From the NCBI GenBank assembly GCA_963844965.1, contig CAWJQC010000007.1, positions 1 through 64,000 of the forward strand: a stretch of 64,000 bases of DNA, read 5' to 3'. Below the pieces are notes generated by a model that was given only the letters and a program-made list of their open reading frames with translations, was not told where the DNA came from and made no database searches. This stretch comes from an uncultured bacterium (GTDB lineage Bacteria > Patescibacteriota > Minisyncoccia > UBA6257 > 2-01-FULL-56-20). This document shows positions 28,111 through 46,929 of this stretch, piece after piece (within the stretch, counting starts at the first letter, position 1; each line of letters starts with the position of its first letter). Position numbers and translations under genes: made by a program.

Positions 28111-28182
28111 GCGTCCTTAGCTCAGTGGCAGAGCGCTTGCATGACACGCAAGAGGTCGCAGGTTCAATCCCTGCAGGACGCA
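28111..28182 (+). tRNA. tRNA-Val (anticodon GAC)
   Basis: GCGTCCTTAGCTCAGTGGCAGAGCG CTTGC ATGACAC GCAAG ..GCAGGTTCAATCCCTGCAGGACGCA. Confidence 0.85.
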
Positions 28183-28329
28183 CACAGCAGTGACAGGTGT
28201 TTCACGACCGCGTCAGCCGACTCTTTCGCGCGACCGCGAGAGCCGACCCAGTTGGACGGAATCATCTTCACATACAAAATACCGTCGCAGAATTGCGGCG
28301 GTATTTTGTATTTCGGCTTCGCCTTTTCG

Positions 28330-29673
28330 CTATGCCGTTTCCTTCGGCATCAAGCTGATCACTCTATTCTTGAGCATCAGTCGGCTCTTGAGGTTCGACA
28401 ACAATTCCCGTTTTTCCGTGATCGTTCCTTCGGTCAGGATATATATCGCATAGGACTTAGCATCGAACGTCTCCGGCTCGGCGTTCTGCTCCCGGCTCTT
28501 GCCCAAGGCAATCCTTCGGAACTTGTTGTACCGCGTGATCTCGTCCTTGAATTTCTGCTTGATGCCAAGCTCGTTCATATCTAAGGTGTCCAGCATGGCA
28601 ATGATCTGTTCGATGATTTCCTCCTCCTTGATGTATCCACACTGGCAATTCACGTCACGTTTCTTTGTGCAGCCGTAATAAACGTATCGATGGGTATTGC
28701 CGTTTTTCTGGTATTTCCACTTCTCGGACGCAGTGATTCCTGACCCACACAAGCCGCAGGTTATCAATTTCGTGAAGGCGAATTCCTTGTCGTTTTTGAC
28801 CTCGCTCCGCTTCAGCTGCTCGCGCGCCCGGTCAAAGAGTTCTTTCGTGATAATTGGCGTATGCTGCCCCGTATACCAGTTTCCCGACCCCTCCGGGAAT
28901 TCAAAGACGCCGTAGTAGAAGGTTTTCTGCAGGATGATAAAGATGTTGGATAACGAGAGGTACTTCCCGTTCGTCGTCTTGAATTTTAGATCATTCTTGA
29001 GCCACAGGTAGAGACGCCGTCCCGACCACTGATCATTCGCCACCTTCTCAAACATCTGGCGGATGACGGGAGCTCGAACTGGATCCACGATCACCTCGCA
29101 GGGCTTGTCCTTGCGCTTTTCGTTCAGGTATCCCGTCGGCGCGATGGATGGCCGCAATCCCTGCTCGCAACGTGTTCGCAACCCTCGCTTCACGTTTTCC
29201 GATTTGTTGTCGTTCTCAAGTTTCGCTGTCGAACACAGAATCATCAGCATAAACTTCTCGCTTGGGTTGTTCGTAAATTTCTGACTGAAGGTTCTGATTT
29301 CGATTAAGAGTTTCTGGTCCATGAGATCGACGAGCGAACCGAGATCACCAGCATTGCGGCTAAGACGGTCCGGTGCCCACGTAAGGATGCCGTTGAATTT
29401 GCCATCTTTGATATCTTTGAGGAGACTATTGAATACCTCACGCTGGCCGACGGCTTTCGCGGAGTGCGATTCCTTCCTTATCTCCACGATCTCAAGTCCG
29501 TCGCGCTCGGCGACCCGGGTCATCTCCTTGATTTGCGAATCAATACTCAGGACTTGTTGCTCCTCAGATTCCGTTGATTTTCTTGCGTATAAACAGTATG
29601 CGACCTTTATGGGAAGCGGTTGATTGGTTGAGGTCGCCGCTCCCACCGACCCCTTGATTAGGTTTGTCATCAA
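28330..29673 (-). CDS. large serine recombinase (integrase)
   Basis: N-terminal resolvase catalytic domain (YARKSTESEEQ..S.), a recombinase domain and a zinc ribbon (CGLCG...C.C). Lies about 150 nt from tRNA-Val. Confidence 0.85.
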   Translation of the reverse strand: MMTNLIKGSVGAATSTNQPLPIKVAYCLYARKSTESEEQQVLSIDSQIKEMTRVAERDGLEIVEIRKESHSAKAVGQREVFNSLLKDIKDGKFNGILTWAPDRLSRNAGDLGSLVDLMDQKLLIEIRTFSQKFTNNPSEKFMLMILCSTAKLENDNKSENVKRGLRTRCEQGLRPSIAPTGYLNEKRKDKPCEVIVDPVRAPVIRQMFEKVANDQWSGRRLYLWLKNDLKFKTTNGKYLSLSNIFIILQKTFYYGVFEFPEGSGNWYTGQHTPIITKELFDRAREQLKRSEVKNDKEFAFTKLITCGLCGSGITASEKWKYQKNGNTHRYVYYGCTKKRDVNCQCGYIKEEEIIEQIIAMLDTLDMNELGIKQKFKDEITRYNKFRRIALGKSREQNAEPETFDAKSYAIYILTEGTITEKRELLSNLKSRLMLKNRVISLMPKETA

Positions 29674-30308: not shown

Positions 30309-30544
30309 GTTAAATAATTACGCCCAAATTTTACTCCGCTGGCAATAAAAAACAAGGCCGCTGCGGTCGGCGGCAGTTGGCTTATTTTTCCCACGGCACC
30401 GGCCTTTGTAGGATGTGCATTGGTTTGAAATCCGTCATCGCGGACTATTACATAACAGTGCCATCTGTGCGGCCCCCTTCAGAATTATCGATTTTATGCT
30501 ATTATAACGATAACAACTGAATATGCCTAAACCTCGCCACCGGC

Positions 30545-30670
30545 GGGGCATGGCACGAAAACCGGTCGGGGATAGAGAGCCCATCGTTTGGGAGCACCCT
30601 GACCGGTCGCATGCCGAAAGGTATGTGGGTGGCGCAAGCCATCGCCCAGCGGTGGGCTTTGTGGTTTCGC
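30545..30670 (+). ncRNA. unclassified structured RNA-like element, copy A (paralog of 40685-40807)
   Basis: About 70% identical to copy B. GAAA and GCAA tetraloop hairpins show compensatory changes between copies (catgcc/ggtatg vs tatctc/ggggtg; tggc/gcca vs tccc/ggga). Ends in GGGCTTT. The strand is assumed. Confidence 0.4.
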
Positions 30671-30701
30671 TACTGGCATAAAAATAAAACCGGTCAGGGT
30701 T

Positions 30702-32175
30702 ATGCCTAATAAACTATATTTTGGAGACAATTTAGATATTCTCCGAAACAAAATCGCCGATAGCTCGGTTGATTTAATTTATCTAGACCCGCCATTTCAG
30801 AGTGGCAAAAACTACAATCAAATTTTTCGTCCCGAAGAAGGCGAAATTCAAGGCGCAACCGCACAGATTCAAGCATTTGAAGACACATGGCAGTGGGGCC
30901 CCGAAGCAGAGAAAAACTACAACGGACTTATTGTGGGCGAAATCAATAAAGAGAAACCAAGTCAGAAACTGATTGACCTCATCAAGGCGATGCGTAGCTA
31001 TCTTGGCGAAGTGCCAATGATGGCATATCTCTCTATGATGGCTCCGAGGTTGCTCGAGATGCGTCGCGCACTAAAGAATACCGGCAGCATCTATTTGCAT
31101 TGCGACCCGACGGCAAGCCACTACCTCAAACTCCTTATGGACGCTATCTTCGGCCCAGAGCATTTTAGAAACGAAATCATCTGGCGCATCGGTTGGGTGT
31201 CCGGCTACAAGAACTCAGAAGCTAGGCTGGATTCGAAATCACGACACGCTCCTCTACTACACGAAATCAGACGAGTTTACGTTCAACAAGGAATATATAC
31301 CCTACCCGCCGGATTATGTCAGACGTGACGGCAAGAAACCCGAAGGGAAAGGCATCCCGATTGAGGATACGTGGAACTGCAATTCAGCCGATGTTCTCAA
31401 CTCCATCATGATCATGAGTTTTTCCACCGAGAAGGTGGGCTACCCGACTCAAAAACCAGAAAAACTTTTAGAGAGAATTGTTAAGGCGAGCTCAAATAAG
31501 GGTGACGTCGTTTTGGATCCATTCTGCGGCTGCGGCACTACAGTCGCCGTCGCTCAAAAACTCGGGCGGCAATGGGTCGGGATAGACATAACGTACCTTG
31601 CCATTGATGTTATAGCAAAGCGATTAGAAAAAAGTGGGTACAAAAAGGGCGATGACTTTGAAATCGATGGCGAACCGAAGGATGTTTATTCCGCAGAAAA
31701 GTTGGCCCAGCAAAAACCATTTCAATTCCAATTCTGGTGCATTGCCAAGATCAATGCGACACAATCAGCAATGAAATCGGGCGATCAGGGTATAGACGGC
31801 ATCATCAATTTTGTTGACTTCACAAAAAAGGACAAGGCGGGTAAGGGCATAGTCCAGGTTAAGGGAACCCAAACAGTTAATCCGTCAATGGTGCGCGATC
31901 TTAAGGGCACAATTAAAAGCCAGGAGGCAGATTTCGGCATTCTTATAACGCTTAAACCACCCACGCACGGCATGATCACGGAGGCGGGAAAAGAGGGTTA
32001 TTATGAATACACCTACGTACCAAATACTCCGCCGCAGAAGATACCGAGGATTCAGTTCTTGACTGCCGAAGATCTGTTCAAAGATCCATTGCCCATCAAG
32101 CTTCCTCCAGCCGTCATTTCGCCCTTCAAGAAGCCCGCTATCGAAGCCATAAAAGAAGAAAGGGGCCTGTTCTAG
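30702..32175 (+). CDS. N6/N4 DNA methyltransferase fused to a C-terminal Mrr-cat-like nuclease domain, split by a frameshift near 31210
   Basis: DPPF motif ([11 protein letters not shown]) in ORF 30702-31328. The +1 frame continues ...[19 protein letters not shown]... into ORF 31408-32175, which carries [23 protein letters not shown]. The C-terminus resembles an Mrr catalytic domain: [10 protein letters not shown]...IVQVKG...DFGILITL. Confidence 0.75.
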
Positions 32176-32264
32176 GTTTTGAAAATCAAACCCCAACCGA
32201 AACGAGAATTTAAATATAAAAAATACCGAATACCAATATTCCAACAGCTCAACTCCCAAAGTCC

Positions 32265-33137
32265 CTATTCACGAGAGAAAACAACCTGAGGGCGGAACCC
32301 CAAGTCGTCGTCCCGTGCGGCAGGGCCATCCCAGTACACGTCGGAGAGGCCACCGTAGCCTGAGCTGCCGCCATCGAGGCGCCTCGCGCCCTTCTGGTAA
32401 GAATCTTCAAACCATTCCCAGGTATTGGTATCGCCCCACTCGGGGTGATAGGCGTTGCCGATGAAGTTCCATTCAATGGCTCGCGGCAGGCGGAGACACT
32501 CTTCGGGCACGTCCATTGCCTCCGCTATGGCTTTTTTCACTTCCGGCTTGTTCAGCTCGTCCCAGGAGATGTTGAAGCGGGAGCCTTTCGTCTCAAAGTC
32601 CGTAATAATCTTCTTTTTCCTCAAGTCCTCCAAGACGGGTCTGAGAACGTCGTCCTTATATATTTGCTTGCCGCTCTCGTACTTCGGCTTCCCGCGGGTG
32701 TCGACGAGAATCCAGGAGGCGGGGAGCTTCAGGGCGTCCTTCGGCAAATCGTCCTTTTTAACATCGGCATAAAATTCAATTCCCCAACCATCGGCATATT
32801 TTTTGCCCGGCTTCTTTTTCCAACCAGGCAAATCGCGCTCTTCTGTTAGTTCTTCATCGGGCAAGTAATGGAGCTCGAAGCCCATTTCCTTCCACTTCTC
32901 GTATCGTTCGGGTGTGATTTCTTCCGGCAGCGGTGGAACCTCAACGTCGTAGCCGAAGAATTCCCTGAGTTTCTCGGTTTCCTGTTCCATTAGTTCCCTG
33001 AACTCTGCCGAGGATTCGGGCGCTTTCCTTTTCTCCTTCTCCGCCTCGCCCAATGCTTTTTCCACCTTCTTCTGGACGGTGGTTTTGTACTGGTCGGGGT
33101 TATACTCTTCGTAGATTTTGTAACCGGGGAAGGGCAT
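32265..33137 (-). CDS. DGR target protein 3 (C-terminal C-type-lectin/FGE-like variable domain)
   Basis: Paralog of 36921-37799 and 37889-38737. C-terminus reads WEWFEDSYQKGARRLDGG...GFRPQVVFSRE and contains VR3. Confidence 0.8.
   Translation of the reverse strand: MPFPGYKIYEEYNPDQYKTTVQKKVEKALGEAEKEKRKAPESSAEFRELMEQETEKLREFFGYDVEVPPLPEEITPERYEKWKEMGFELHYLPDEELTEERDLPGWKKKPGKKYADGWGIEFYADVKKDDLPKDALKLPASWILVDTRGKPKYESGKQIYKDDVLRPVLEDLRKKKIITDFETKGSRFNISWDELNKPEVKKAIAEAMDVPEECLRLPRAIEWNFIGNAYHPEWGDTNTWEWFEDSYQKGARRLDGGSSGYGGLSDVYWDGPAARDDDLGFRPQVVFSRE
32285..32390 (-). repeat. DGR variable repeat VR3
   Basis: 106-nt match to the TR at 36576-36681 with 10 mismatches, all at TR adenines (coding sense). 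Confidence 0.85.
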
Positions 33138-33142
33138 GGGGG

Positions 33143-35164
33143 TTATAAGTCTTTAGTATATTGAAGAATAACTTTTTGAACGGCCCGCGGCAATTTATTG
33201 ATGTCTTCAATGACTTCCGCGTCGGGCTTGTAGGTTTCTTTCACAGCGGCCCCAGATTCCGTCATCCCGAGTCCCAAAACAATCACTCCTTTCTCGCGAA
33301 GGGCTTTGAGATTTTTTTGAACAAGCTCCGCGTTTTCGCTTTCGCCGTCCGAGAGCACCACGATTACCTTGCGCCTTATCTTTTCTCGAATCTGTCGCTC
33401 GTCTTCTGGCGTCAACGATTTCAATACCTCATCAAGCGATAGATAATCCGGCGTTCCGCCGCCCGCGTTGTGCATTTTCTTCCAAATTGCGATGCGGTCT
33501 TTTTCCGATAGGTCTGGCGAGAGTTTTTTGAGTTCAGCGTCCCCGAAGTCGCCGAACGCTCTCGTTTCGGTTCTCACGCCCAAGCCAACCGGCGTACCGC
33601 TTTCGTACTCGGCCTCCTCAATTTCTTTTTGGAAATCCGCAAGCGATTCCAAGAAGAGAAGCTTGCTCTTCCGGTCCATTTCCAATTTTGATCCCTCGTT
33701 CATGGAACCGGACAGGTCGTTGATCAGGGTCATGTCAAGCGCACCGTATCCTTCCTCCTCCCGTTCTTTGCGCTCGACTTCTCGGAATGCCCTCGGCTCG
33801 CCGCCGCTTTTTGATTCAATGTACGCTTCCGCGATCGCGCCACCTTCTATTTCCTCTCCTTCCCTCTGAAGTTGTGGCCGCACTTTCCAGCGCCGCCGCA
33901 ATCTCCTTGTCACCACTTGTTTGAACACTTCTCGGAGTTCGGCGATGAGCGGTGCGATTTCTTTATATTCATTCCGATAGCCAATTATGTCCTCAGGGCT
34001 TACATTATGCTCTTTGGCCCACTGTTCAAGGATGCTTTGATCAAGCGACGGCATTCCGCCCCGTTCTTTCACGATCGTCTCCATTGTTTTCATGATTTTC
34101 TCCTCGTCTTTCGCGGATAACGGCTCGGGGTGCACATCTTCGTAAGTTTTATATTGCTTCTTGAAATTTTTTTCCGCTTCTTTTCGCGCCGCGCTCTCGC
34201 TCCCCTTATCTTTTTTCTTGTCTTTCTCTTTCCCGCCCTCTTCCTCTTTGCCCTTGCCGGCCTCGGCTTCTTTTTTCTTTTTGAATTTGTCCCACCATTT
34301 TTTATCCTGCTTTTGCTCGCCTTGTCCCCCCTGCCCTTCTTGAGGTTGGCCTTCTCCGGCCTCTTCCTGCCCCTTCCCTTTTTTACCCTTACCTTTCTGC
34401 GTTTCTTTCTCCAGGTCCTTGCGATAGAGCTCCATATAAACCGGCTCGACAACCTGGCGCATAAGCCTGAAGCGATCGCGCGGCTCTATCGTAGGAGTGG
34501 TTACGAGATCCAAAATATCCGTCTTGTCGCCGCCGAAGCTTCTGAGCTTATCGAGCGCTTCTTGGGCTTCGGGACCCACCATAACCTTTTCATCGGGGAC
34601 CATCATCTGACGTATAAAGCCGTAGACGAACTGGACGTGGGCCGCCAGTTCTTGTTCTTGCCCGGTCTTCGGGTCTTCCAGGCGTCGGTAGTCCGTCGCC
34701 GGAAACATTTTCTCTTTATATAAAGTTCGGCGCGTCTCCTCCAAAAATGGTAGTTCGGCGACGATACGCCGATTACCAAGCACATCTTCAAAAATATTAT
34801 GAAGGATGTGGAGCTGCGGTTTTTGCTGGCTGTATCGCTTCGCTTCTTTGAGTATGAACTCGGGGTCTCTCAAGAGCTCGCCGTAATGAGCCATAAGTTC
34901 GTGGGTTGTCGCAAAAAGGGTTTCTTTGAGATTGTAGCCGCGCTCGATAAAAAAGTTAGGATCGTAAATTAGCCGACGGTTTTCAAAATCGAACGCCCAG
35001 CCGTTATTGCCCCTATCAAGCGTGATATCGCCGCGCATGCCGTACGCGCCGAGAATCTCGCCCTCTCTATCGAAAAACGCTTCAATTTCGGATGGCGGCG
35101 CCTCCTTTTTCTCAGCGAGGACGGTATTCTCCTCTGGCGGTTTTTCTGGCGAGAATTTAGTCAC
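33143..35164 (-). CDS. vWA-domain protein with a highly charged Lys/Glu/Gly-rich central region
   Basis: C-terminal von Willebrand A domain with the MIDAS motif DLSGSM. Confidence 0.75.
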   Translation of the reverse strand: MTKFSPEKPPEENTVLAEKKEAPPSEIEAFFDREGEILGAYGMRGDITLDRGNNGWAFDFENRRLIYDPNFFIERGYNLKETLFATTHELMAHYGELLRDPEFILKEAKRYSQQKPQLHILHNIFEDVLGNRRIVAELPFLEETRRTLYKEKMFPATDYRRLEDPKTGQEQELAAHVQFVYGFIRQMMVPDEKVMVGPEAQEALDKLRSFGGDKTDILDLVTTPTIEPRDRFRLMRQVVEPVYMELYRKDLEKETQKGKGKKGKGQEEAGEGQPQEGQGGQGEQKQDKKWWDKFKKKKEAEAGKGKEEEGGKEKDKKKDKGSESAARKEAEKNFKKQYKTYEDVHPEPLSAKDEEKIMKTMETIVKERGGMPSLDQSILEQWAKEHNVSPEDIIGYRNEYKEIAPLIAELREVFKQVVTRRLRRRWKVRPQLQREGEEIEGGAIAEAYIESKSGGEPRAFREVERKEREEEGYGALDMTLINDLSGSMNEGSKLEMDRKSKLLFLESLADFQKEIEEAEYESGTPVGLGVRTETRAFGDFGDAELKKLSPDLSEKDRIAIWKKMHNAGGGTPDYLSLDEVLKSLTPEDERQIREKIRRKVIVVLSDGESENAELVQKNLKALREKGVIVLGLGMTESGAAVKETYKPDAEVIEDINKLPRAVQKVILQYTKDL

Positions 35165-35201
35165 GTTGTTTTGTTTATTATACCGCTTATACGCAAAAAA
35201 A

Positions 35202-36278
35202 TCAAATGATTTTCTTTATCATTTCCAGCCGCACCCCGCGAGACCGAGAATGCTTCACGAGCCCCAAATACGAGATGAAAGAATCTTTATTGAAACCGTT
35301 ATCCAATTTTTGGAGCATTCTCCGTTTTGTTTTTGTGCGCAAAATGCGGTGATGCGGAAAACAAACAAATCCGAGAAAATCTACGCCCTGATGATATTTT
35401 CTTATGGAAACTTTTTTGGGGTGCAGCTCGAGTTTGAGGTTTGCGTTAAGAAAATCGCTGATTTTTTCGATGTAGCTCGACAGAAGTTCCTTGTCCCTGT
35501 CCAAAATCACGAAATCATCGCAATAGCGCATATAATATTTTGCCCGCAAGATCGTTTTTACGAATTGATCGAGCTCATTCATGTAGATATTCGCGAAGAG
35601 TTGGCTCGTAAGGTTGCCGAGCGGCAACCCCTTGCCAGCTTCTTTGCTGAAACTGTCGATAATTATTTGGAAAAGGCTGAGGGCGCGCGGATCTTGTATT
35701 CGCCGCGCAAGAAGATTCTTCAATATCCCGTGGTCAATGGAGTTGAAAAAACTTTTGATGTCGCACTTCAGGGCCCAAACTGTTTTCGTGTTGTTTTTGG
35801 ATAATTTCCAGCCAAATTTGTGCAAGCGCTCGAGCGCGGCGTGAGCCCCCTTCTCGTCCCGGCAAGCGTAAGAATCAAAAATGAAGCGCAGATCGAATAT
35901 CGGCTCGATCACCCTGACGATCGCGTGATGTAAAACCCGGTCGCGAACCGGTGCTTTGTGGATGTGTCTTTTCTTCGGATCGAACACAAAAAACGATTTA
36001 TACGCGCCATGTTGATATTTTCCGTCCTTTAGCGTATAATGCAGGCAGAAAAGGTTATCTTCAAGATTGCGGGAAAATTCCATCACTTCCAGCTTCCGCG
36101 ATTTACCTCGTAAAAACTCATACCATGCAAACAACAAATTATTAGATGAAATAATGTTTTCATACACAACATGACTATCCAAACCGTCCCCGATAGAATG
36201 TTGGACCTCCCTATTTTCCATAAAACATACGATTTTATTATTGTATTTTCCAATTACGTCGTTAAGTTTCCCAAACAC
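35202..36278 (-). CDS. diversity-generating retroelement reverse transcriptase
   Basis: RT motifs including YMRYCDDFVIL (YxDD). The DGR hallmark LPLGNLTSQLFANIYM ([ILV]GxxxSQ) replaces the QGxxxSP of group II and retron RTs. 358 aa with no maturase or endonuclease domains. Confidence 0.88.
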   Translation of the reverse strand: MFGKLNDVIGKYNNKIVCFMENREVQHSIGDGLDSHVVYENIISSNNLLFAWYEFLRGKSRKLEVMEFSRNLEDNLFCLHYTLKDGKYQHGAYKSFFVFDPKKRHIHKAPVRDRVLHHAIVRVIEPIFDLRFIFDSYACRDEKGAHAALERLHKFGWKLSKNNTKTVWALKCDIKSFFNSIDHGILKNLLARRIQDPRALSLFQIIIDSFSKEAGKGLPLGNLTSQLFANIYMNELDQFVKTILRAKYYMRYCDDFVILDRDKELLSSYIEKISDFLNANLKLELHPKKVSIRKYHQGVDFLGFVCFPHHRILRTKTKRRMLQKLDNGFNKDSFISYLGLVKHSRSRGVRLEMIKKII

Positions 36279-36551
36279 GATCGCTTCACTCTCGGCGCGA
36301 GGATAGAAAACACCGCCGTCGAACTCTTAATGCTTATCATGCGGGCGAATTACGGGCAAGCCGTAGCGCGCGTCGGTTTTTTAAACGAAGGAAGTATCCT
36401 GCTCGATATGCTCAAGGTATTCGTGCGGCTCGCGAAGGATAAGAAAGCTATACACCCGAATCAGTATTTAATGCTCGAGGAACGGTTGCAGGAAATAGGC
36501 CGCATGCTCGGCGGTTGGATAAAGTCCTCAAGTGCAAAAAGACCCGTGTGA
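36171..36551 (+). CDS. avd: Avd-like four-helix-bundle protein (DGR accessory variability determinant family)
   Basis: FPKHDRFTLGARIENTAVELLMLIMRAN and LEERLQEIGRMLGGWI match the four-helix-bundle/Avd family. Lies opposite to the RT. A probable later start at M36198. Followed by a hairpin terminator at 36536-36566. Confidence 0.65.
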   Translation: MTIQTVPDRMLDLPIFHKTYDFIIVFSNYVVKFPKHDRFTLGARIENTAVELLMLIMRANYGQAVARVGFLNEGSILLDMLKVFVRLAKDKKAIHPNQYLMLEERLQEIGRMLGGWIKSSSAKRPV

Positions 36552-36575
36552 GCGGGTCTTTTTGTGAGATACGAT

Positions 36576-36681
36576 CTGAGGGCGGAACCCCAAGTTGTCG
36601 TTCCGTTCGGCAGGGTCATCCCAGTTCACGTTGGAGAGGCCACCGTTGTCTGAGTTGCCGCCATCGAGGCGCCTCGTGCCC
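36576..36681 (-). repeat. DGR template repeat (TR)
   Basis: 106 nt. Coding-sense translation is Asn/AAC-rich (..GNSDNGGLSNVNWDDPAERNDNLGFRPQ). It is the invariant partner of VR1-3, and every VR difference maps to a TR adenine. Confidence 0.88.
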
Positions 36682-36920
36682 GGTCCCAAGCCCATCTGTG
36701 TCCCAAACCATCCAAGGCAGCGGCAATTCGCAGAAAGCGTCTTGCCTGTATAAATATGGAGCGGTATTCCTTTGTTTAAAGGAAATCCGCATAAGTTTGG
36801 AGCACGTCGTTTCTCTCGTTTGTTGGGCGAACCGACGATCCGTAGATCCGGCTACATTAGCCCGCATAAAAAATTTACACCGAAATGCCCAAAGGAGCAA
36901 CAGCCCAATCCCCAAAGTTC

Positions 36921-37799
36921 CTACTCACGAGAGAAAACAACCTGAGGGCGGAACCCCAAGTCGTCGTTCCGTCCGGCAGGGCCATCCCAGTCCACGTGGG
37001 AGAGGCCACCGCGGCCTGAGTGGCCGCCATCGAGGCGCCTCGCGCCCTTTTGGTAAGAGTCCTCGAACCATTCCCAGGTATTCGTCTCACCCCACTTGGG
37101 ATAATAAAGATTTCCCATATAGTTCCATTCAATAGCTCTTGGAAGTCTCAGGGATTCGGGCGGAACGTCGAGTGCCTCCGCGATGGCTTTTTTCACTTCC
37201 GGCTTGTTCAGCTCGTCCCAGGAGATATTATAGCGAGAGTTCTTGACTTTGAAATCCGTGATTATCTTTTTCTTTCTCAAATCCTCAAGTGTCTCTGCCA
37301 GTATGTCTTCGGCATATTTTTGTTTGCCGTCTTGATAGTTGGGCTTTTCGCGGCTGTCCACGAGAATCCACGAGGCAGGTAGTTTGAGGGTGTCTTTCGG
37401 AAGATTGCCGTTCTTTACCTCGTCAAAAAACTCGATACCCCAACTCTTATCCGGAGTGTATCGCGTGCCCGGCTTCTTTTTCCAACCAGGCAAATCGCGC
37501 TCTTCTGTTAGCTCTTCATCGGGCAAGTAATGAAGTTCAAGCCCCATTTCTTTCCACTTTTCGTATCGTTCTGGTGTGATTTCTTCCGGCAGCAGTGGAA
37601 CCTCAACGTCGTAGCCGAAGAATTCCCTGAGTTTCTCGGTTTCCTGCTCCATTAGTTCCCTGAACTCTGCCGAGGATTCGGGTGCTTTCCTTTTCTCCTT
37701 CTCCGCCTCGCCCAATGCTTTTTCCACCTTCTTTTGAACGGTGGTTTTGTACTGGTCGGGGTTATACTCTTCGTAGATTTTGTAACCGGGGAAGGGCAT
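36921..37799 (-). CDS. DGR target protein 1
   Basis: 292 aa, paralog of targets 2 and 3. VR1 lies at its 3' end. Confidence 0.8.
   Translation of the reverse strand: MPFPGYKIYEEYNPDQYKTTVQKKVEKALGEAEKEKRKAPESSAEFRELMEQETEKLREFFGYDVEVPLLPEEITPERYEKWKEMGLELHYLPDEELTEERDLPGWKKKPGTRYTPDKSWGIEFFDEVKNGNLPKDTLKLPASWILVDSREKPNYQDGKQKYAEDILAETLEDLRKKKIITDFKVKNSRYNISWDELNKPEVKKAIAEALDVPPESLRLPRAIEWNYMGNLYYPKWGETNTWEWFEDSYQKGARRLDGGHSGRGGLSHVDWDGPAGRNDDLGFRPQVVFSRE
36942..37047 (-). repeat. DGR variable repeat VR1
   Basis: 10 mismatches to the TR, all at TR adenines. Confidence 0.85.
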
Positions 37800-37888
37800 G
37801 GTGTCAAATGAATGGTCTTATTTGTTTATTGTTATAAAATTTTTTTTGAAAGCCTACCAAAGAAACAAGAGAACAATTGTCAAAGTTC

Positions 37889-38737
37889 CTACTCACGAGA
37901 GAAAACAACCTGAGGGCGGAACCCCAAGCTGCCGAGCCGCTCGGCAGGGTCATCCCAGTCCACGTGGGAGAGGCCACCGAGGCCTGAGCCGCCGCCATCG
38001 AGGCGCCTCGCGCCCTTTTGGTAAGAATCTTCAAACCATTCCCAGGTATTGGTATCGCCCCACTCGGGGTGATAGGCGTTGCCGATAACGTTCCATTCAA
38101 TCGCTCGCGGCAGGCGGAGACACTCTTCGGGCACGTCCATTGCCTCCGCTATGGCCTTTTTGACTTCGGGCTTATTCAGTTCGTCCCAGGAGATGTTGAA
38201 GCGGGAGCCTTTCGTCTCAAAGTCCGTAATAATCTTCTTTTTCCTCAAGTCCTCTAAGACGGGTCTGAGGACGTCGTCCTTATATATTTGCTTGCCGCTC
38301 TCGTACTTCGGCTTCCCGCGGGTGTCGACGAGAATCCAGGCGTCGGGGAGCTTAGCAGCATCGGCAGGGATTTCGTTCGCCTCTAAGCGGCCATAAAACC
38401 AATCTCCAGGTTTCTTTTTCCACCCCGGGAAAGCGGCATCCTTCCTCATCTCTTCCGGGGGAAGGTAGTGCAATTCAAAACCCATCTCTTTCCATTTTTC
38501 ATAACGCTCGGGGGTAACTTCATCGGGTAAGGGCGGGACTTCAACCTCATGACCGAAGAAAGTGCTGAGAGATTCTGTCTCGCGATCTACCAGTTCCCGG
38601 AATTCCGCTGATTCCGGCGTCATTCTCCCTTTCTCCTTCTCCGCCTCGCCCAGTGCTTTTTCCACCTTCTTCTGGACGGTGGTTTTGTACTGGTCGGGGT
38701 TGTACTCTTCATAGATTTTGTAGCCGGGGAAGGGCAT
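37889..38737 (-). CDS. DGR target protein 2
   Basis: 282 aa paralog. The N-terminal 200 aa are ~80% identical to targets 1 and 3. Confidence 0.8.
   Translation of the reverse strand: MPFPGYKIYEEYNPDQYKTTVQKKVEKALGEAEKEKGRMTPESAEFRELVDRETESLSTFFGHEVEVPPLPDEVTPERYEKWKEMGFELHYLPPEEMRKDAAFPGWKKKPGDWFYGRLEANEIPADAAKLPDAWILVDTRGKPKYESGKQIYKDDVLRPVLEDLRKKKIITDFETKGSRFNISWDELNKPEVKKAIAEAMDVPEECLRLPRAIEWNVIGNAYHPEWGDTNTWEWFEDSYQKGARRLDGGGSGLGGLSHVDWDDPAERLGSLGFRPQVVFSRE
37900..38005 (-). repeat. DGR variable repeat VR2
   Basis: 13 mismatches to the TR, all at TR adenines. Confidence 0.85.
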
Positions 38738-38742
38738 CGGAA

Positions 38743-40419
38743 TTATTCTTTACCTTGCCACGCACGTAGGGTCTTCGCCGCGAGTCCAGGCACCTTGAAA
38801 TCTTCCGGCTTGGTGTCTTTGAAGAATTTATTCGCCATAAAGACGCGGATCATGTTTTCCCTGTCTTTGCTCGCGCGTCCGCTGATTTCCGCCTTATGGA
38901 AGAACTCGCGGAGAACCACGTTTCCGAGCGGATCTTTGAAGCCGCCGGCCTTCCACGCCTTCATAATTTCAATCTGGTCCTTCAAGGTGATGACGAGTTC
39001 TCGAAACGCAAGGCGGTCGCTCTTTGACAAGCTTTCTTCCGCGCCCTCCCGCACCGAGAGCGTGAAATCTTCCTGAATTTTGCGGCAGGCGGCGGCAAAG
39101 CGCTTCAGCTCATCAACTTTTTGCCCTGCTTCCGCTTCGCTCCATTGAATGTTGCCGTGGCGGTCGGCGAGAACGGCGGTCAAAATCTGCAACGTTTCCG
39201 GAGCGATATACTGCCCTTCTTTATTTTTCTTGCCGAGGTCCAAGTAATGTATTTCCCGCGCCCCTGCGCCTCCGATGAAGCGGCGAAGGGTCGCGACGTC
39301 CAGCTCATAGCGCTGCTTATATCGTTCTGATTTCAAGTTTGCCGTTGCCATAATCGGCGCGCGGATCGGAATTTCTTCCCCGGTCACCGGATGCTTCCAT
39401 GCGTCGCCGACGCGTTTCTGAAGAAGATCGTGCAAGATCCCCGCGAATTCGTGGGGCATAAGGTTGACTTCGTCCAAGATCACCGGGCGTCCTTCTTTTT
39501 GCGCCTTTACGAATTCGGAATAGTCAAAAACCGTCTCGCCCCCTTTGAGCCCTCGGCTCCCTATGATTTGTGATTCTTTGATTTGTTCTTGAATGGGGAT
39601 TAGGGCTGGGTCTCTCCTTAAGTATCTTTCGGAAATATATTTTGCAAGCTGCGACTTTCCGGAACCGGTTTCGCCCTGGAAAAGAACCGGCGCACCCTGC
39701 ATCAAATCCGGAAGTATGGCTCGGATCAATTCCGTACGCGATTCCGTTTCGGCGAAGCTGTAACGTTCGAGGTCGCGCTGCATGCGTCTGATTCCTCGCC
39801 GCTCCAACATATCAATCGTTTCGGGGTCCAATTCAAACTTCTGTAATCTTTCTTGAAGCTCAATCTTCCGAGCCGCCATGTTCGCCAATTTCTTGCGTTC
39901 AATCGGACCGGGCGCTCGCCCCACTTTCTCGAAAAGCATCTGGAGCTTTTCTTCGGCAGAAGTTATTGCGCCAAGTTCTTTCTCCGCATGTTCGTATTCT
40001 AACGCTTTTGCGAGCGTCTGTTTTTGTCTTTCAAATTTTTCTTTGTAAGCACGCAGCACTTCTGGATTGCTTGCTAATTCTTTTATACGAGCGTCGTATT
40101 CGTGAAGCGTGGTTTCCTGAAATTCCGCTAATTCTGGATCGAGCGAAAGAGCCTCAAGATGTGCGGCCATTTCTTTTTCGCCTTTGGCTTTGAGATCGGC
40201 GAGTTCCGTTTTGCTTTTCACGCCCCAGGCCTCATTCACATGTTTTGCGACCTCCGCGCGAGAAGCCGAAAACTCGGCGAGTTCGCTGACTCGCGATTCT
40301 AATTCTTCAGGCGACAGGGTTTTTTCTTTTTTCCCGGATTTTTGCGCGCCCTCCTTCTCAAGAACGATTTCGGGGGTAGTTTTTACCTCGGGAACATGTG
40401 GTATTTTTTCTGGGGACAT
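38743..40419 (-). CDS. MoxR-like AAA+ ATPase with a long N-terminal coiled-coil region
   Basis: Walker A GETGSGKSQLA, Walker B VILDEVN and a sensor region. It sits immediately upstream of DGR target 2 on the same strand. Confidence 0.75.
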   Translation of the reverse strand: MSPEKIPHVPEVKTTPEIVLEKEGAQKSGKKEKTLSPEELESRVSELAEFSASRAEVAKHVNEAWGVKSKTELADLKAKGEKEMAAHLEALSLDPELAEFQETTLHEYDARIKELASNPEVLRAYKEKFERQKQTLAKALEYEHAEKELGAITSAEEKLQMLFEKVGRAPGPIERKKLANMAARKIELQERLQKFELDPETIDMLERRGIRRMQRDLERYSFAETESRTELIRAILPDLMQGAPVLFQGETGSGKSQLAKYISERYLRRDPALIPIQEQIKESQIIGSRGLKGGETVFDYSEFVKAQKEGRPVILDEVNLMPHEFAGILHDLLQKRVGDAWKHPVTGEEIPIRAPIMATANLKSERYKQRYELDVATLRRFIGGAGAREIHYLDLGKKNKEGQYIAPETLQILTAVLADRHGNIQWSEAEAGQKVDELKRFAAACRKIQEDFTLSVREGAEESLSKSDRLAFRELVITLKDQIEIMKAWKAGGFKDPLGNVVLREFFHKAEISGRASKDRENMIRVFMANKFFKDTKPEDFKVPGLAAKTLRAWQGKE

Positions 40420-40684
40420 ATTATTGCAATTATAGTAGCAAGGCCTTTATTTCTCAAGACTTTCGATTGTTTCCATGATACCATAATAATATAACTGCGT
40501 CAAGTCGCGCGTTTTCGTTCCCGAACGACCCCTGCTCTATCCTCAAAAACCTTGTCAGGGTCTAACTACGAAGGCCCCTTCGCAAGTCCTCTGATCTAAG
40601 TTAGGGTGGATGCAAAGGTCGAAAAATCGTATAATCTCATTAACAACTGAATAACCTCAAAGGCAGAGCCGTAACCCTCGCGAA

Positions 40685-40807
40685 AAATCGTGCGGCATGG
40701 CTCGAAATCCGTCCTCGGTAGAAAGCTCCTAGTCAGAGCACCGGGGACGGTCATATCTCGAAAGGGGTGTGGGTCCCGCAAGGGATCGCTGGCTGGGAGC
40801 TTTTTAT
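40685..40807 (+). ncRNA. unclassified structured RNA-like element, copy B (paralog of 30545-30670)
   Basis: Same hairpin architecture as copy A with covarying stems. Ends GGGAGCTTTTTATTT, which looks like a terminator. Confidence 0.4.
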
Positions 40808-40860
40808 TTCGGTCGATCTCTCGCTGGCACATTAGTAAATAATTAACAAAAAATAAAAAT

Positions 40861-41421
40861 ATGGAAGAGCAAACAAAGAAATGCAGGGAGTGCAAGTCGG
40901 ACATTCCGGCTGGCGCCAAGCGATGTCCCAGCTGCCGAGCGGATCAAAGGAACTGGTTGATGCGCCATAAAGCCTTAACTGTCGTGGTGATATTTATAGC
41001 GCTCATTATCATAGCCATGGTTGCTGGTAGTAATAGCAATAACCCTAAACAGGTCGGCAATAACAGCCAGCCAGTCCCATCATCCCAAGAGCAGACGTTC
41101 AAGGTCGGCGATCACGTCCAGATGGGAAGCGATATCATAACGGTGAACAGCGCGGAGTTTTCGAGCGGTACAGAATTCGCAAAGCCAGCCGCTGGGAACA
41201 CCTGGTTAGACGTCAATCTGACGATACAAAACACGGACAACGCCCAGCAGTATATAACGACCATGGGACAGATGTTTGTTAAGGATTCCGACGGCAACAG
41301 TTACAACGTTTCGCCCACGGACAAAGAATTACAAAATCCATCGCTTGGCATGGACGGCCCGATTCTTGCCAACAGCAAAAAGACCGCTTGGGTAGGGTTT
41401 GTAAAGGATAGGTTTCTTTAG
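40861..41421 (+). CDS. zinc-ribbon/TM/DUF4352-like protein; its last 6 codons lie inside an IS3 terminus
   Basis: N-terminal CxxC...CxxC, one TM, then a beta-rich extracellular domain. The C-terminal ..VKDRFL* is encoded by the IS3 end TGTAAAGGATAGGTTTCTTTAG. Confidence 0.55.
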   Translation: MEEQTKKCRECKSDIPAGAKRCPSCRADQRNWLMRHKALTVVVIFIALIIIAMVAGSNSNNPKQVGNNSQPVPSSQEQTFKVGDHVQMGSDIITVNSAEFSSGTEFAKPAAGNTWLDVNLTIQNTDNAQQYITTMGQMFVKDSDGNSYNVSPTDKELQNPSLGMDGPILANSKKTAWVGFVKDRFL

Positions 41422-41456
41422 ACAGTGATTCGACGGCTTTTTGCCGTTTTTTTTCG

Positions 41457-42239
41457 TTAAGCCGCAATCTTCTCGGCAAACACGGACGGCGGCATCTTGA
41501 GGGCGGAGTGGATCCGCGTGTGGTTGTACTGCCACAAGGTGCTGTAGATCTCCGCCACGAGCTCGCCGAAGGTCCCGAACCGGTTGGGATCACCGAGGTC
41601 AATCTTGAACTTGTCATAGAACGATTCCTGGTAGCCGTTTTCCCATGGGGCACCGGGCCGCGACCGCGAGATCGTGATGCCACAGTCCCCCAGTGTATCG
41701 GTGAACGCTCGTGCCTTGTACTCGCTGCCGTTGTCCGAATGGAAGATGACCGGATGCGGATGGTGGAAAAGCGCGTTGGCCAGGGTCTGTATCGTGAGGG
41801 GCGATCCTTTCCGCAACGCCACATGGACGCCCATCAATCGTCTCGTGAAAAGATCGAGTATCGTGGACACGTACACTTTCTTGCCGCGATACAGGAACTC
41901 CGTGAAATCGGTTGCCCAGACGTGGTTCGCGTACGAGGGCATGATGGCAAGTAAGAGGTTCGGAAAGGCCCGCGATGCCTTTGATTTCCGGTATTTCCTG
42001 CCTCGCCTCCGGTACGGCCTTATGCCGAAGATTCGCATGACGCGCTGCGCTCGCGGACGGCTCACGCCCAGAGCTTGTCCCAAGCGCCGGGAACCGTATG
42101 CCGGATGGCGCTGCAATTCTTCTTCCATGCGGATCTTGAGCGCCCAATCTTTCTTGTCCTGCCGTGATACGTAGTAGAGCGATGCCCGCGAGACGCCCAT
42201 GGCCCGCGCCATGGCGGACTTGTTCCGCTTTTCCGTCAA
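41457..42239 (-). CDS. IS3 transposase OrfB (DDE integrase core)
   Basis: HSDNGSEY and PWENGYQESF motifs. 260 aa. Confidence 0.9.
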   Translation of the reverse strand: MTEKRNKSAMARAMGVSRASLYYVSRQDKKDWALKIRMEEELQRHPAYGSRRLGQALGVSRPRAQRVMRIFGIRPYRRRGRKYRKSKASRAFPNLLLAIMPSYANHVWATDFTEFLYRGKKVYVSTILDLFTRRLMGVHVALRKGSPLTIQTLANALFHHPHPVIFHSDNGSEYKARAFTDTLGDCGITISRSRPGAPWENGYQESFYDKFKIDLGDPNRFGTFGELVAEIYSTLWQYNHTRIHSALKMPPSVFAEKIAA

Positions 42240-42499
42240 TTCTTTTTTTGGGCCTGGGAGAGCTTCACGGTGAGCTCGCCCACCACTTCAAACAGCTCCC
42301 TGTTCTGCTTCTGGAGACGGCTGAACTCGCCCCAGGAAGGGACGCCCGATGCTCCTGCGCCTAGCCAATTGTAGATGGTGGACTCGTGCAAACCGTGGTC
42401 CTTCGCAGCCTGCGCTACGGGGACTCCTTCTTCCTTCACCCGGCGGAGGATGTCCGCCTTCACTTCCTTCGCAATCCGATGCCCTTTTTTGTTGCTCAT
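42236..42499 (-). CDS. IS3 transposase OrfA (HTH)
   Basis: 87 aa. Overlaps orfB at AAAAAAAG, the -1 frameshift site. Confidence 0.9.
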   Translation of the reverse strand: MSNKKGHRIAKEVKADILRRVKEEGVPVAQAAKDHGLHESTIYNWLGAGASGVPSWGEFSRLQKQNRELFEVVGELTVKLSQAQKKN

Positions 42500-42531
42500 G
42501 ACACAATGGTAGTTTGTTTCGACCTTTGTGT

Positions 42532-43794
42532 CTAAATTATCCTATCCGGGTCAATGGTTAAGTCGCAGAATGCCGGTTCCAATTCGACCGTATAGACCCG
42601 GCGCTTAAGTTGTTCACCTGCAATCAGCGTGCTGCCGCTGCCGCAAAAGCTGTCCAAGATAATGTCTCCCGGACGGCTGCACCTGCGGATCGCTTTTTCA
42701 TGGAGCGCTGGCGGCTTGGACGTAGCGTGCTGATATTCGTTGCCCGCGAGTCGCTTCACGAGCCAGATGTCAAGCAAATCCAGGATGTCGTCAATGAGCC
42801 TGTTGCCCGTGGAGAGTTCCTTGTTCTGGATCTCGTTGAGCGACTGGAGGCCCTTCGCGAGATACGGCTTGCCGCGGACGCCGTAGACGGCGGGTTCATA
42901 GCACTTCGAGAAAGCGACCTCGGGAGTGGGGTTCTGGCCGTTTTTAATCCAGAGGCAGACGCGCTTGTTTTCAAGGCCGAGTTCCGCGTAGAGTGTCTGC
43001 AGGAGCCAGATATAACGCTGGTCGCACCAATAAAAGACATGCATATCGTCTTTCGCGACGGCGAGGGCGTTTACGAGGCTCTTCCGGAGAAACTCTTTGT
43101 ACTCGTCGTCAGTCCGCGTGTCGTTGACGCTACCGCCGTAGTTGGCATGTCCGCCGACGCCCTTCGCATAATCCACGCCGCCCTTCAGGTTATAGACCGG
43201 ATCGGAATAAATGACGGATGCCTTCTCGCCGCCAAAAAGCTTTTTGAGGACGGCGGGGTCTGTTGAATCGCCGCAAGCTAATTTATGAGGGCCTAGCGAG
43301 AATATGTCGCCGAGCTTTGTTTTCGGTTTTTTGATCTTGGCGAGCTCGCGTTCGACATTGAACTCATCGTCCTGAACTTCCGCGATGTCGTCCCAGAGGT
43401 GCGACAGCTCTTCGTCTTTAAATCCGATTTCAAGCAATAGCTCGGTGTCGAAGGTGCGTAATAGCTCGTATGACCAGTCTCCGCGCACGGCATTTGAGGT
43501 GAGCAAGTATTGCTCAAACTCGTGTTTCGTCAATTTCCGGTTCGGCACGCGCACTTCTATTTCTTCGCTCCCTCGGCCAAGGAGCTGAAGGGCCTTCAAC
43601 CTTTGATGACCAGCTATGATCGTGCCGTCCGTGTCGATCGCGGGAAGTTCTACGACGTTGAATTTCGTCAGGCTCTTCTTAAGGGCCTCGAGCTGAGCCT
43701 CGCCGATGGTGCGGGGATTTTTGGAAAACGGGACGAGTGAGTTAATCGCTCTCTTCTCCGTGTGCCAGATTAGCGATATGTGTTTTCTAGCCAT
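42532..43794 (-). CDS. ParB-like nuclease domain fused to an N6/N4 DNA methyltransferase
   Basis: N-terminal ParB/Srx-like (..AGHQRLKAL..), then DPVYNLKG (DPPY-like) and FCGSGSTLIAGEQL. The last ~7 codons (..DPDRII*) are encoded by the IS3 terminus. Confidence 0.8.
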   Translation of the reverse strand: MARKHISLIWHTEKRAINSLVPFSKNPRTIGEAQLEALKKSLTKFNVVELPAIDTDGTIIAGHQRLKALQLLGRGSEEIEVRVPNRKLTKHEFEQYLLTSNAVRGDWSYELLRTFDTELLLEIGFKDEELSHLWDDIAEVQDDEFNVERELAKIKKPKTKLGDIFSLGPHKLACGDSTDPAVLKKLFGGEKASVIYSDPVYNLKGGVDYAKGVGGHANYGGSVNDTRTDDEYKEFLRKSLVNALAVAKDDMHVFYWCDQRYIWLLQTLYAELGLENKRVCLWIKNGQNPTPEVAFSKCYEPAVYGVRGKPYLAKGLQSLNEIQNKELSTGNRLIDDILDLLDIWLVKRLAGNEYQHATSKPPALHEKAIRRCSRPGDIILDSFCGSGSTLIAGEQLKRRVYTVELEPAFCDLTIDPDRII

Positions 43795-45795: not shown

Positions 45796-45827
45796 ACACA
45801 AAGGTCGAAACAAACTACCATTGTGTC

Positions 45828-46091
45828 ATGAGCAACAAAAAAGGGCATCGGATTGCGAAGGAAGTGAAGGCGGACATCCTCCGCCGGGTGAAGGAAGAAG
45901 GAGTCCCCGTAGCGCAGGCTGCGAAGGACCACGGTTTGCACGAGTCCACCATCTACAATTGGCTAGGCGCAGGAGCATCGGGCGTCCCTTCCTGGGGCGA
46001 GTTCAGCCGTCTCCAGAAGCAGAACAGGGAGCTGTTTGAAGTGGTGGGCGAGCTCACCGTGAAGCTCTCCCAGGCCCAAAAAAAGAATTGA
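45828..46091 (+). CDS. IS3 transposase OrfA
   Basis: Identical to the orfA at 42236-42499. Confidence 0.9.
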   Translation: MSNKKGHRIAKEVKADILRRVKEEGVPVAQAAKDHGLHESTIYNWLGAGASGVPSWGEFSRLQKQNRELFEVVGELTVKLSQAQKKN

Positions 46092-46870: not shown

Positions 46871-46929
46871 CGAAAAAAAACGGCAAAAAGCCGTCGAATC
46901 ACTGTCTAAAGAAACCTATCCTTTACAGG

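Follow-up and report, generated by a model that had tools for sequence, protein, structure and literature searches.

LOOT RNAs in a Patescibacteria contig: candidate bistable leaders of genes carried on mobile DNA

A stretch of 64,000 nucleotides from contig CAWJQC010000007.1 of an uncultured patescibacterium (hereafter, the window) contains two related structured elements, referred to as copy A and copy B. In an Rfam cmscan both were matched by the LOOT RNA family (RF03000), copy A at positions 30524-30643 of the plus strand (89.6 bits, E 1e-15) and copy B at positions 40667-40787 of the same strand (83.0 bits, E 4e-14). The gathering score of RF03000 is 46.4 bits, and both copies cover model positions 1-121 of 121, untruncated. 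It is nearly certain that both elements are full-length, ordinary, high-scoring LOOT RNAs. On the sequence evidence assembled here we favour, with modest confidence, the view that LOOT is a bistable cis-acting 5′ leader, transcribed from its own promoter, that gates the gene located just downstream.

A preliminary description of the elements had named an Rfam match to a known family as an outcome that would refute it, and had proposed an Infernal search. That search has now been run; since it matched LOOT, novelty of the elements is not supported. They belong to a family already known and are of low novelty as a find. The description was accurate in recognizing two paralogous structured RNAs with compensatory changes in two GNRA-capped stems, and the differences it quoted are exactly those seen in P4 (CGCAUGCC-GAAA-GGUAUGUG in copy A, CAUAUCUC-GAAA-GGGGUGUG in copy B) and P5 (GGUGGC-GCAA-GCCAUC in copy A, GGUCCC-GCAA-GGGAUC in copy B). 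Pairing-preserving differences between the copies extend over P2-P5. An identity of about 70% had been given; we measured 69% when the Rfam coordinates were compared and 66% for the span used earlier. The starts previously assigned, 30545 and 40685, are too late and leave out the first 21 nt, with the 5′ strand of P1 and the motif CCUAAAC, one half of a receptor-like loop considered below. Folding of both regions is much more stable than that of shuffled sequences (z of -4.9 for the copy A region and -5.6 for the copy B region), with 0 of 200 shuffles reaching an equal value. The CCUAAAC and GCAUGG motifs, the A-rich J1/3 and the GAAA/GNRA loops are complete in copy A. Copy B has the variants CCGUAAC (one inserted G) and AAAU, and its alignment to RF03000 still holds. 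An extended model, R1, gave scores of 136.6 bits for copy A and 115.2 bits for copy B. A permissive Rfam scan of the window revealed no third LOOT copy, and no other non-tRNA Rfam family, at E≤1.

LOOT came into Rfam as a metagenome-derived RNA from the Weinberg/Breaker ZWD alignments (PMC7779021, Fig. 1). The source of these alignments is Weinberg et al. 2017 (PMC5737381), in the main text of which LOOT is absent. Two more covarying pairs were added to LOOT in Rfam 15 (PMC11701678, Table 2), and the family has been cited for its unusual number of cross-covariations (PMC7657543). In the literature searched, no function has been assigned to it. The catalogued host range comprises the OD1/OP11/TM7 lineages (Patescibacteria, or Candidate Phyla Radiation, CPR). 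The window elements are no different from the catalogued motif: they agree in the five helices, in CCUAAAC, GCAUGG and AAAA, in the loops (GAAA and GNRA) and in length, and most hosts of the relatives collected here carry Patescibacteria names. What differs from the context found here is the catalogued description, which is that of a small RNA (sRNA) of 121 nt.

About 190 relatives were collected in total, all with search patterns in which GGCATGG or YATGG, the P4 GAAA loop and the lengths of the stems were held constant. Among GTDB species genomes, 76 of 78 pattern matches were true LOOTs. Most of their hosts are metagenome-assembled genomes (MAGs) named Levy-, Gottesman-, Woese-, Roizman-, Magasanik-, Nealson-, Saccharibacteria or Parcubacteria/Paceibacterota, and the rest have generic or other labels. 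A second pattern yielded at least 120 further loci in metagenomes; the first 100 of these were searched with R1, and all were strong matches with one LOOT each. Approximately 73 of the 76 genome loci are likewise single-copy. Locus L064 has two complete tandem LOOTs (4058-4209 and 4311-4471, minus strand), ca. 100 nt apart and located before one gene, each with its own ACAATT leader. Locus L065 has two LOOTs 1.1 kb apart, and the second copy in L013 is degenerate. Two candidates, L001 (the only match of a strict-pattern viral scan) and L024 (a Methylobacter MAG in GTDB), were rejected as chance matches, to which R1 gives no match.

Base pairing is conserved throughout this set. Standard pairs make up 94% of the proposed ones in 80 distinct homologues, compared to 68.5% in shuffled and 34-45% in slid controls, and 40 of the 49 proposed pairs have changes on both sides. 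The paired fraction in these sequences is 91% for P1, 87% for P2, 98% for P3, 99% for P4 and 100% for P5. An alignment made with MAFFT only gives 84% for P3 instead of the 98% obtained with the model-based alignment; it under-counts P3 pairing because the length of this stem varies. The earlier proposal that selection acts on RNA structure, and that neither coding nor a recent duplication accounts for the likeness of the copies, is thus borne out by the excess of standard pairs.

The internal loop between P1 and P2, CCUAAA(C)...(G)CAUGG, resembles the 11-nt GAAA tetraloop receptor, whose canonical sequence, as given in PMC11381326, is CCUAAG...UAUGG. In 76 sequences gathered without fixing CCTAAAC, this motif shows at least 90% conservation. 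In a scan allowing R at receptor position 6 and Y at position 7, A..C was found 105 times, G..U 8 times, A..U 3 times and G..C once (the last being a spurious register); the exact canonical receptor is present in 8 of 117 LOOTs. The exchange of A.C for G.U at positions 6/7 is isosteric. The Rfam consensus has a GAAA loop on P4, and the second position of the P5 loop varies; in our own homologue sets the P4 GAAA was fixed by the search pattern. We take the P1/P2 loop to be an 11-nt GAAA receptor, with the P4 GAAA loop as its predicted docking partner. The likeness to the receptors of group I/II introns, RNase P and some riboswitches lies in the loop sequence, in the A.C/G.U switching at positions 6/7 and in the GAAA-capped P4. 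The difference is that the commonest LOOT form has A.C where the canonical motif has G.U, and docking in LOOT is a prediction.

Downstream of P5, a further conserved helix was found. The 13-16 nt that follow P5 (the tail) are complementary to the apical 5′ strand and loop of P3 (seg1), and the pairing, which often reaches A-rich/U-rich flanks, makes a helix of 12-18 bp. The mean duplex energy was -26.2 kcal/mol with the element's own tail, -17.1 kcal/mol with foreign tails and -13.4 kcal/mol with shuffled ones (n=74), and the result was replicated in metagenome loci (own -26.7 versus -18.1 kcal/mol, n=114 of the loci listed). The two window copies follow the same rule: seg1 of copy A pairs with its own tail at -28.4 kcal/mol versus -16.0 kcal/mol with the copy B tail, while seg1 of copy B pairs with its own tail at -30.9 kcal/mol (18 bp) versus -17.1 kcal/mol with the copy A tail. 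In the model-based alignment, the columns of the seg1:tail helix are 92% paired and 10 of 12 pairs have changed on both sides (for example, UA 38, CG 34 and UG 6 at one pair; GC 22, CG 20, AU 19, UG 12 and UA 4 at another). This covariation is also seen in the MAFFT alignment. A U-rich run begins directly after the helix, its first three columns being at least 90% T; the run after the 18-bp helix of copy B reads UUUUUAUUU. The gggNcttt block that had been noticed at the 3′ end of both copies is therefore real, and corresponds to the 3′ strand of the long-range helix plus the U-tract. A terminator scan flagged copy A as terminator-like through a local tail hairpin, and copy B was not flagged by the simple scan. 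The helix followed by a U-tract fits the form of an intrinsic (Rho-independent) terminator, and we consider it a predicted terminator.

Nested folds of 177 LOOTs had a mean energy of -53.0 kcal/mol when the tail was held single-stranded and of -55.3 kcal/mol when the P3 5′ strand was blocked; in the latter case at least 10 seg1:tail pairs were formed in 175 of the 177. In nested minimum free energy predictions, copy A takes the Rfam fold and copy B forms the long seg1:tail helix. A 4-bp local stem at the P3 apex also covaries with seg1 (78% paired, with UA 34 and CG 23 at one pair). P3 and the long helix together are topologically a pseudoknot, in which linkers of ca. 1 and 4-5 nt would have to surround a helix of 13-18 bp. 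Because these linkers are so short, we reason that the two helices alternate rather than coexist. A third segment, located after the U-run, is able to pair with the tail in about half of the loci; copy B is one of these. In the local fold of copy B, GCUGGC.GGGAG pairs with CUCUC GCUGGC at -15.5 kcal/mol. As a universal element the third segment was rejected: its own pairing is barely above the swapped one, and it is frequent but unexplained.

Upstream of P1 and outside the 121-nt Rfam model lies a conserved leader, ACAAYTNAATA, that belongs to a block, with a -10 box, common to both window copies. ACAAYT is present 9-26 nt 5′ of P1 in 83 of 172 relatives, compared to 2 of 172 in a control window. 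A TAnnnT box whose end is 4-9 nt ahead of the motif is present in 62 of these 83; at a control offset the count is 18 of 83. A small hairpin is located between the -10 box and the motif in Saccharibacteria, which places the leader motif inside the RNA. The motif is probably at or near the transcription start. Candidate partners of ACAAYU, the UUGU in the U-tract and a P4 strand, were compared by eye and showed no convincing complementarity or covariation. A leader peptide starting at the conserved AUG in GGCAUGG was rejected, as it would have 48 codons in copy A and only 11 in copy B. Approximately 5-10 nt upstream of the -10 box, a block GGA(Y)GC(M)AAGGTCGA is found at copy B (40607-40629) and also at L021, L027, L014 and L044, where the LOOT adjoins a serine recombinase gene. 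This block could be a -35-region element or an operator.

With the downstream gene defined as the nearest open reading frame (ORF) of at least 80 aa, a co-oriented downstream ORF was found at 74 of 74 genome loci and at 96 of 102 of the metagenome loci listed (170 of 176 combined). Its start is mostly 0-60 nt beyond a point 20 nt past the tail end. Most upstream genes are divergent (48 versus 21 at genome loci and 71 versus 25 at the metagenome loci listed). As stated earlier, copy B precedes a DUF4352 gene and ends in a U-tract, ca. 50 nt before the ATG at 40861; the statement that copy A abuts the methyltransferase start needs correction, as copy A ends ca. 35 nt before the ATG at 30702. The copy A methyltransferase is encoded in two ORFs 80 nt apart, the N-terminal half of PF01555 being in the first and the C-terminal half in the second, which also carries an Mrr_cat nuclease domain (PF04471). 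The split may reflect a pseudogene, a frameshift or an enzyme that is truly made in two parts. The copy B product has a transmembrane-like segment from residue 32, and its homologues in L042 and L056 are also led by a LOOT.

A relation between LOOT and the start of the downstream gene was also found. A strong complement of the P3 3′ strand abuts the start codon at ca. 10% of 175 loci, versus 1% in swapped controls, and no such excess was observed for the P3 5′ strand (1% versus 1%). This complement duplicates "AAAACC + P3 5′ strand", and the purine-rich end of the duplicate provides the Shine-Dalgarno sequence. This mimic is clearest in copy A, where a perfect complement of the P3 3′ strand CCCTGACCGG (30597-30606; -23.1 kcal/mol) ends 2 nt before the ATG at 30702.

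LOOT loci are associated with mobile DNA. Homologues of a large serine recombinase encoded in the window were found at 28 of 77 genome loci and at 30 of 120 of the metagenome loci listed (58 of 197). In 42 cases the recombinase gene is upstream and divergent, as at copy A, and in 5 it is directly upstream on the same strand. The window recombinase is 55-62% identical to those in MAG loci L057, L043, L014 and L021. The recombinase gene has a tRNA gene next to its 3′ end in the window (tRNA-Val), in L034 (tRNA-Pro) and in L029 (tRNA-Leu), the distance in the window being 147 nt. In all, tRNA genes were found in 22 of 60 loci, ca. three times a rough expectation derived from typical CPR tRNA counts. 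The order tRNA/recombinase/LOOT is seen also in L034 and L029, and probably in L002, L003, L006, L008, L012, L033, L036 and L061. These arrangements suggest a family of tRNA-adjacent integrative elements in CPR bacteria.

LOOTs are found on phage contigs as well. A blastn search of INPHARED phages gave no match to copy A. Two true LOOTs are located on IMG/VR contigs. One LOOT contig from this collection encodes a large terminase (phrog_38, E 9e-84) and a ParB-methyltransferase. L080 (IMGVR_UViG_3300025935_000087, 7341 nt) has a full LOOT at 5822-5964 (minus strand) before a 93-aa ORF. It is inovirus-like, with a Zot-like ATPase and a rolling-circle Rep, and is probably a filamentous phage of a CPR bacterium. 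High-scoring LOOTs are also present on MAG contigs with non-CPR labels (L015, L018, L020, L046, L064, L069 and L072, as well as L021, L049, L052 and L078). The labels are Gammaproteobacteria, Sediminibacterium, Pseudomonadales, Burkholderiaceae and Pseudobdellovibrionaceae, and one of the contigs is 840 kb long. These contigs are probably mislabelled or mis-binned CPR DNA; otherwise, LOOT extends beyond the CPR.

If LOOT is a cis-acting leader, it may work as follows. Copy A would lead a DNA methyltransferase, and copy B a membrane zinc-ribbon/DUF4352 protein. In the native fold P3 would be closed, an arrangement presumably stabilized when the P4 GAAA loop docks on the receptor; the tail would be free, RNA polymerase would read through, and the P3 3′ strand would be unavailable. 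In the alternative fold the tail would invade seg1, and the resulting long helix, with the U-tract, would act as an intrinsic terminator, P3 probably being opened. In copy A transcripts that are read through, the freed P3 3′ strand could mask the Shine-Dalgarno region, itself a copy of the P3 5′ strand. Where a third segment follows the U-tract, as in copy B, it may trap the tail and lock the read-through state. The balance might be tipped by a ligand, a protein, Mg2+ or the speed of transcription. The unit as a whole travels with CPR mobile DNA (tRNA-adjacent serine-recombinase elements and phages) and would drive variable, moron-like cargo. The model predicts that termination at the U-tract depends on seg1:tail pairing, and that masking of the copy A Shine-Dalgarno sequence depends on the P3 3′ strand.

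A more specific version of this proposal is possible rather than probable: LOOT would represent a new riboswitch-like class of bistable leaders in CPR bacteria and their mobile elements, rather than a trans-acting sRNA, in which a receptor-braced antiterminator is set against a terminator helix of P3 loop and tail, some members releasing an anti-Shine-Dalgarno sequence, and in which envelope-protein, methyltransferase and nuclease cargo is gated. Features expected of a riboswitch or attenuator are present, namely the leader position, a covarying helix with a U-tract, two nearly isoenergetic folds and, at ca. 10% of loci, the anti-Shine-Dalgarno relation. A coherent set of regulated genes was not found. 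As far as we have checked, the additional anatomy and the cis-leader interpretation are new, though the original supplement may already note part of them.

Several observations weigh against a cis-acting leader. The Rfam type of LOOT is "Gene; sRNA". The 63 downstream proteins match 27 unrelated Pfam families, most proteins being without a match, and share no pathway, which is unusual for a metabolite riboswitch. The cargo families include SHOCT, DUF4352, PG_binding_1, G5, CHAP, N6_N4_Mtase, NucS_C, DUF559 and GIY-YIG, and the only trend is a transmembrane or signal-like segment in 44 of the 63 proteins. Only ca. 10% of loci have the Shine-Dalgarno mimic, and copy B lacks it (-9.3 kcal/mol). 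Instead of alternating, P3 and the long helix may coexist as a pseudoknot, and the covariation fits both cases. Pairing of the tail with the third segment is weakly specific (own -12.5 versus swapped -10.4 kcal/mol; median rank 25 of 71). The homologue sets cover only part of the LOOT family, because the search patterns fix positions. Finally, the cis-leader interpretation is drawn from sequence, as every functional step in it, including termination, the mutual exclusivity of the folds and any regulation, is deduced.

The same observations bear on other explanations. LOOT could be a free-standing, trans-acting sRNA of ca. 150 nt that ends at the U-tract, the downstream gene being incidental or expressed by leaky read-through. 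This agrees with the Rfam type, with a promoter-like site and a strong terminator-like end of its own, with functionally unrelated downstream genes, with a compact fold whose tetraloop-receptor contact suggests a stable particle, and with occasional tandem or nearby copies (L064, L065 and the window). We nevertheless consider it unlikely. The downstream genes are co-oriented in 170 of 176 cases and start a few tens of nt past the tail, which leaves little room for another promoter; a Shine-Dalgarno-bearing copy of the P3 5′ strand recurs at the start codon; and there are two nearly isoenergetic folds that both covary. Because of the co-oriented genes and the mimics at start codons, the type of an independent sRNA gene does not fit these loci; this bears on how the family is annotated and leaves the assignment of the two copies to LOOT untouched. 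Possibly LOOT has a dual role, as a cis leader and as a terminated RNA that functions in trans. An improbable alternative is that LOOT is a static pseudoknotted aptamer or protein platform, in which a bound ligand or protein decides termination (an OFF-type riboswitch or attenuator). Strong covariation of both helices, which are topologically compatible, and the highly conserved junction nucleotides (CCUAAAC, GCAUGG, AAAA) would be expected in this case, but linkers of only ca. 1 and 4-5 nt between P3 and seg1 would have to accommodate a 13-18 bp helix, and the local apical stem and the Shine-Dalgarno mimic imply alternative partners. Neither of these objections is decisive. Two further roles for LOOT are very improbable: that of a self-cleaving ribozyme by which the cargo mRNA is trimmed, and that of a processive antiterminator similar to put. 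Small ribozymes and the HK022 put RNA have a similar distribution on mobile elements, and the conserved core, the tertiary contact and the variable context on phages and integrative elements would suit either; yet the E≤1 Rfam scan of the window matched no ribozyme or other family, we identified no conserved candidate site of cleavage, and a covarying terminator-like helix is unexpected under both models.

The preliminary description had also allowed for an attachment-site or boundary role of the two copies around a segment with the methyltransferase, a diversity-generating retroelement (DGR) and an AAA+ gene; they would then be repeats generated or used by the serine recombinase. In favour of this, the copies lie 10.1 kb apart as direct repeats; copy A is one gene away from the large serine recombinase beside tRNA-Val; recombinase genes adjoin LOOT in many genomes; and the entire region of 28-49 kb is accessory, with insertion sequence (IS) copies, an IS200, a second methyltransferase and the DGR. 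The link with mobile DNA thus stands, given the recombinase in 58 of 197 loci, but the notion that LOOTs bracket DNA does not: all of the first 100 metagenome loci are single-copy, as are ca. 73 of 76 genome loci, and bracketing by LOOTs is thus not the normal arrangement. Identity between the copies is no higher than 66-69%, they differ by changes that compensate one another in the RNA, strand-specific G.U pairs among them, and each tail fits only its own P3 loop. LOOT is also found without a recombinase nearby, and the inovirus-like contig that carries one encodes a rolling-circle Rep. In the window, no second occurrence of the 3′ end of tRNA-Val that would mark the far boundary was found within 3 mismatches. 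Recombinase genes adjoin LOOT recurrently, yet adjacency alone does not make LOOT the site, and we regard this explanation as hardly credible. The two LOOTs do not delimit the accessory block; each heads its own transcription unit inside it.

A cis-acting LOOT leader would have counterparts among known systems. In some classes of terminating riboswitches and attenuators, a strand of the aptamer pseudoknot competes with the terminator. LOOT resembles them in its promoter-proximal leader position, its two nearly isoenergetic folds, its helix with a U-tract, an anti-Shine-Dalgarno sequence within an aptamer helix, and occasional tandems. It differs in that no ligand or coherent regulon accompanies it, its cargo being unrelated accessory genes, and in that the 5′ strand of the terminator is within the P3 loop, ca. 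75 nt upstream, with no separate expression platform. The phage P4 CI RNA and P1 c4 RNA are immunity leaders of mobile elements in which RNA-RNA pairing causes premature termination. As in LOOT, a single segment has complementary partners on either side of it, upstream and downstream. LOOT is without sequence or structural similarity to them (no Rfam C4 match was obtained in the window), and its partners are within one molecule and are matched copy by copy. Phage morons are autonomous promoter-gene-terminator units inserted in prophages. LOOT units are similar in having their own promoter, a single variable cargo gene, often for a membrane or secreted protein, and a prophage-like or integrative location. 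Morons have no defining shared structured leader, while in LOOT units the conserved part is the RNA.

The Rfam LOOT model stops at P5 and omits the leader, the tail helix and the U-tract; addition of the tail and the leader could improve annotation. To our knowledge, almost no gene regulation has been characterized in CPR bacteria. If LOOT is a cis-acting switch, it would be among the few candidate regulatory RNAs of a large and mostly uncultivated bacterial branch, and would mark accessory genes borne by mobile elements in these bacteria. The features of the two LOOT units and the adjacent recombinase and tRNA genes are listed in Table 1.

Table 1. Coordinates of the two LOOT units and of neighbouring features in the window
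Feature	Position	Strand	Basis or remark
Copy A promoter-like site (TTCAGA, 16 nt, TG-TATTAT)	30478..30505	+	consensus scan 9/12, extended -10
Copy A leader motif ACAACTGAATA	30513..30523	+	outside Rfam model; same letters in copy B
Shared upstream block TAACAACTGAATA (with -10 box ahead)	30510-30523 and 40640-40653	+	both copies
Copy A core, RF03000	30524..30643	+	cmscan, R1
Copy A P1; P2; receptor loop UAAA/CAU	P1 30524-27/30552-55; P2 30532-48	+	RF03000 model
Copy A P3 basal; P4 (GAAA); P5 (GCAA)	P3 30562-71/30597-606; P4 30608-27; P5 30628-43	+	RF03000 model
Copy A seg1 (P3 apical strand and loop), pairs with 3′ tail	30576..30591	+	duplex energy, covarying columns
Copy A 3′ tail; U-tract TTTGTGGTTT	tail 30645-30660; U-tract 30658-30667	+	terminator-like in scan; helix covariation
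Copy A tail, alternative local hairpin GCCCAGCGGTGGGC	within 30645..30667	+	
Copy A Shine-Dalgarno-bearing mimic AAAACCGGTCAGGG	30686..30699	+	copy of AAAACCGGTCGGGG (J/P3-5′, 30558-30571)
Copy A cargo, N6/N4 DNA methyltransferase in two ORFs	30702-31328, 31408-32175	+	Pfam PF01555, PF04471
Copy B -10 box TATAAT; leader motif ACAACTGAATA	-10 box 40630-35; motif 40643-53	+	direct repeat family D4
Copy B 13-nt insert between leader motif and P1	40654-66	+	
Copy B core, RF03000	40667..40787	+	cmscan, R1
Copy B seg1 UAGAAAGCUCCUAGUCAG, P3 apical region	40719..40736	+	18-bp duplex with own tail
Copy B 3′ tail CUGGCUGGGAGCU and U-tract TTTTTATTT (40801-40809)	40789..40809	+	
Copy B seg3 CTCTCGCTGGC, can pair with tail, U-tract in loop	40818..40828	+	local fold
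Copy B cargo, 186-aa zinc-ribbon/transmembrane/DUF4352 protein	40861..41421	+	Pfam PF11611, E 1e-15
Large serine recombinase	28330..29673	-	Pfam Resolvase + Recombinase + Zn_ribbon_recom
tRNA-Val	28111-28183		faces recombinase gene 3′ end

The window DNA from 28 to 49.5 kb, between tRNA-Val and tRNA-Ile (49555), is accessory, and this stretch looks like an accessory island. It contains a DGR at 32265-38737, with a reverse transcriptase gene at 35202-36278 (minus strand) and a template repeat at 36571-36681. The variable repeats (32281-32391, 36937-37047 and 37905-38015) are located at the 3′ ends of paralogous genes encoding proteins of 290, 292 and 282 aa, and mismatches between template and variable repeats are at template adenines (gene strand). 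A VWA/AAA_5 gene pair is also present within the accessory block.

Two IS copies of 1154 nt with an rve-type transposase (41400-42553 and 45774-46927) are 100% identical and inverted. They flank a second N6/N4 DNA methyltransferase gene (42532-43794, minus strand) and two unannotated genes, an arrangement that resembles a composite transposon beginning just past the copy B cargo gene. A further transposase gene of the rve family (46503-47675) overlaps the second IS copy, and a gene for an IS200-type Y1 transposase is located at 47692-48129, just before tRNA-Ile.

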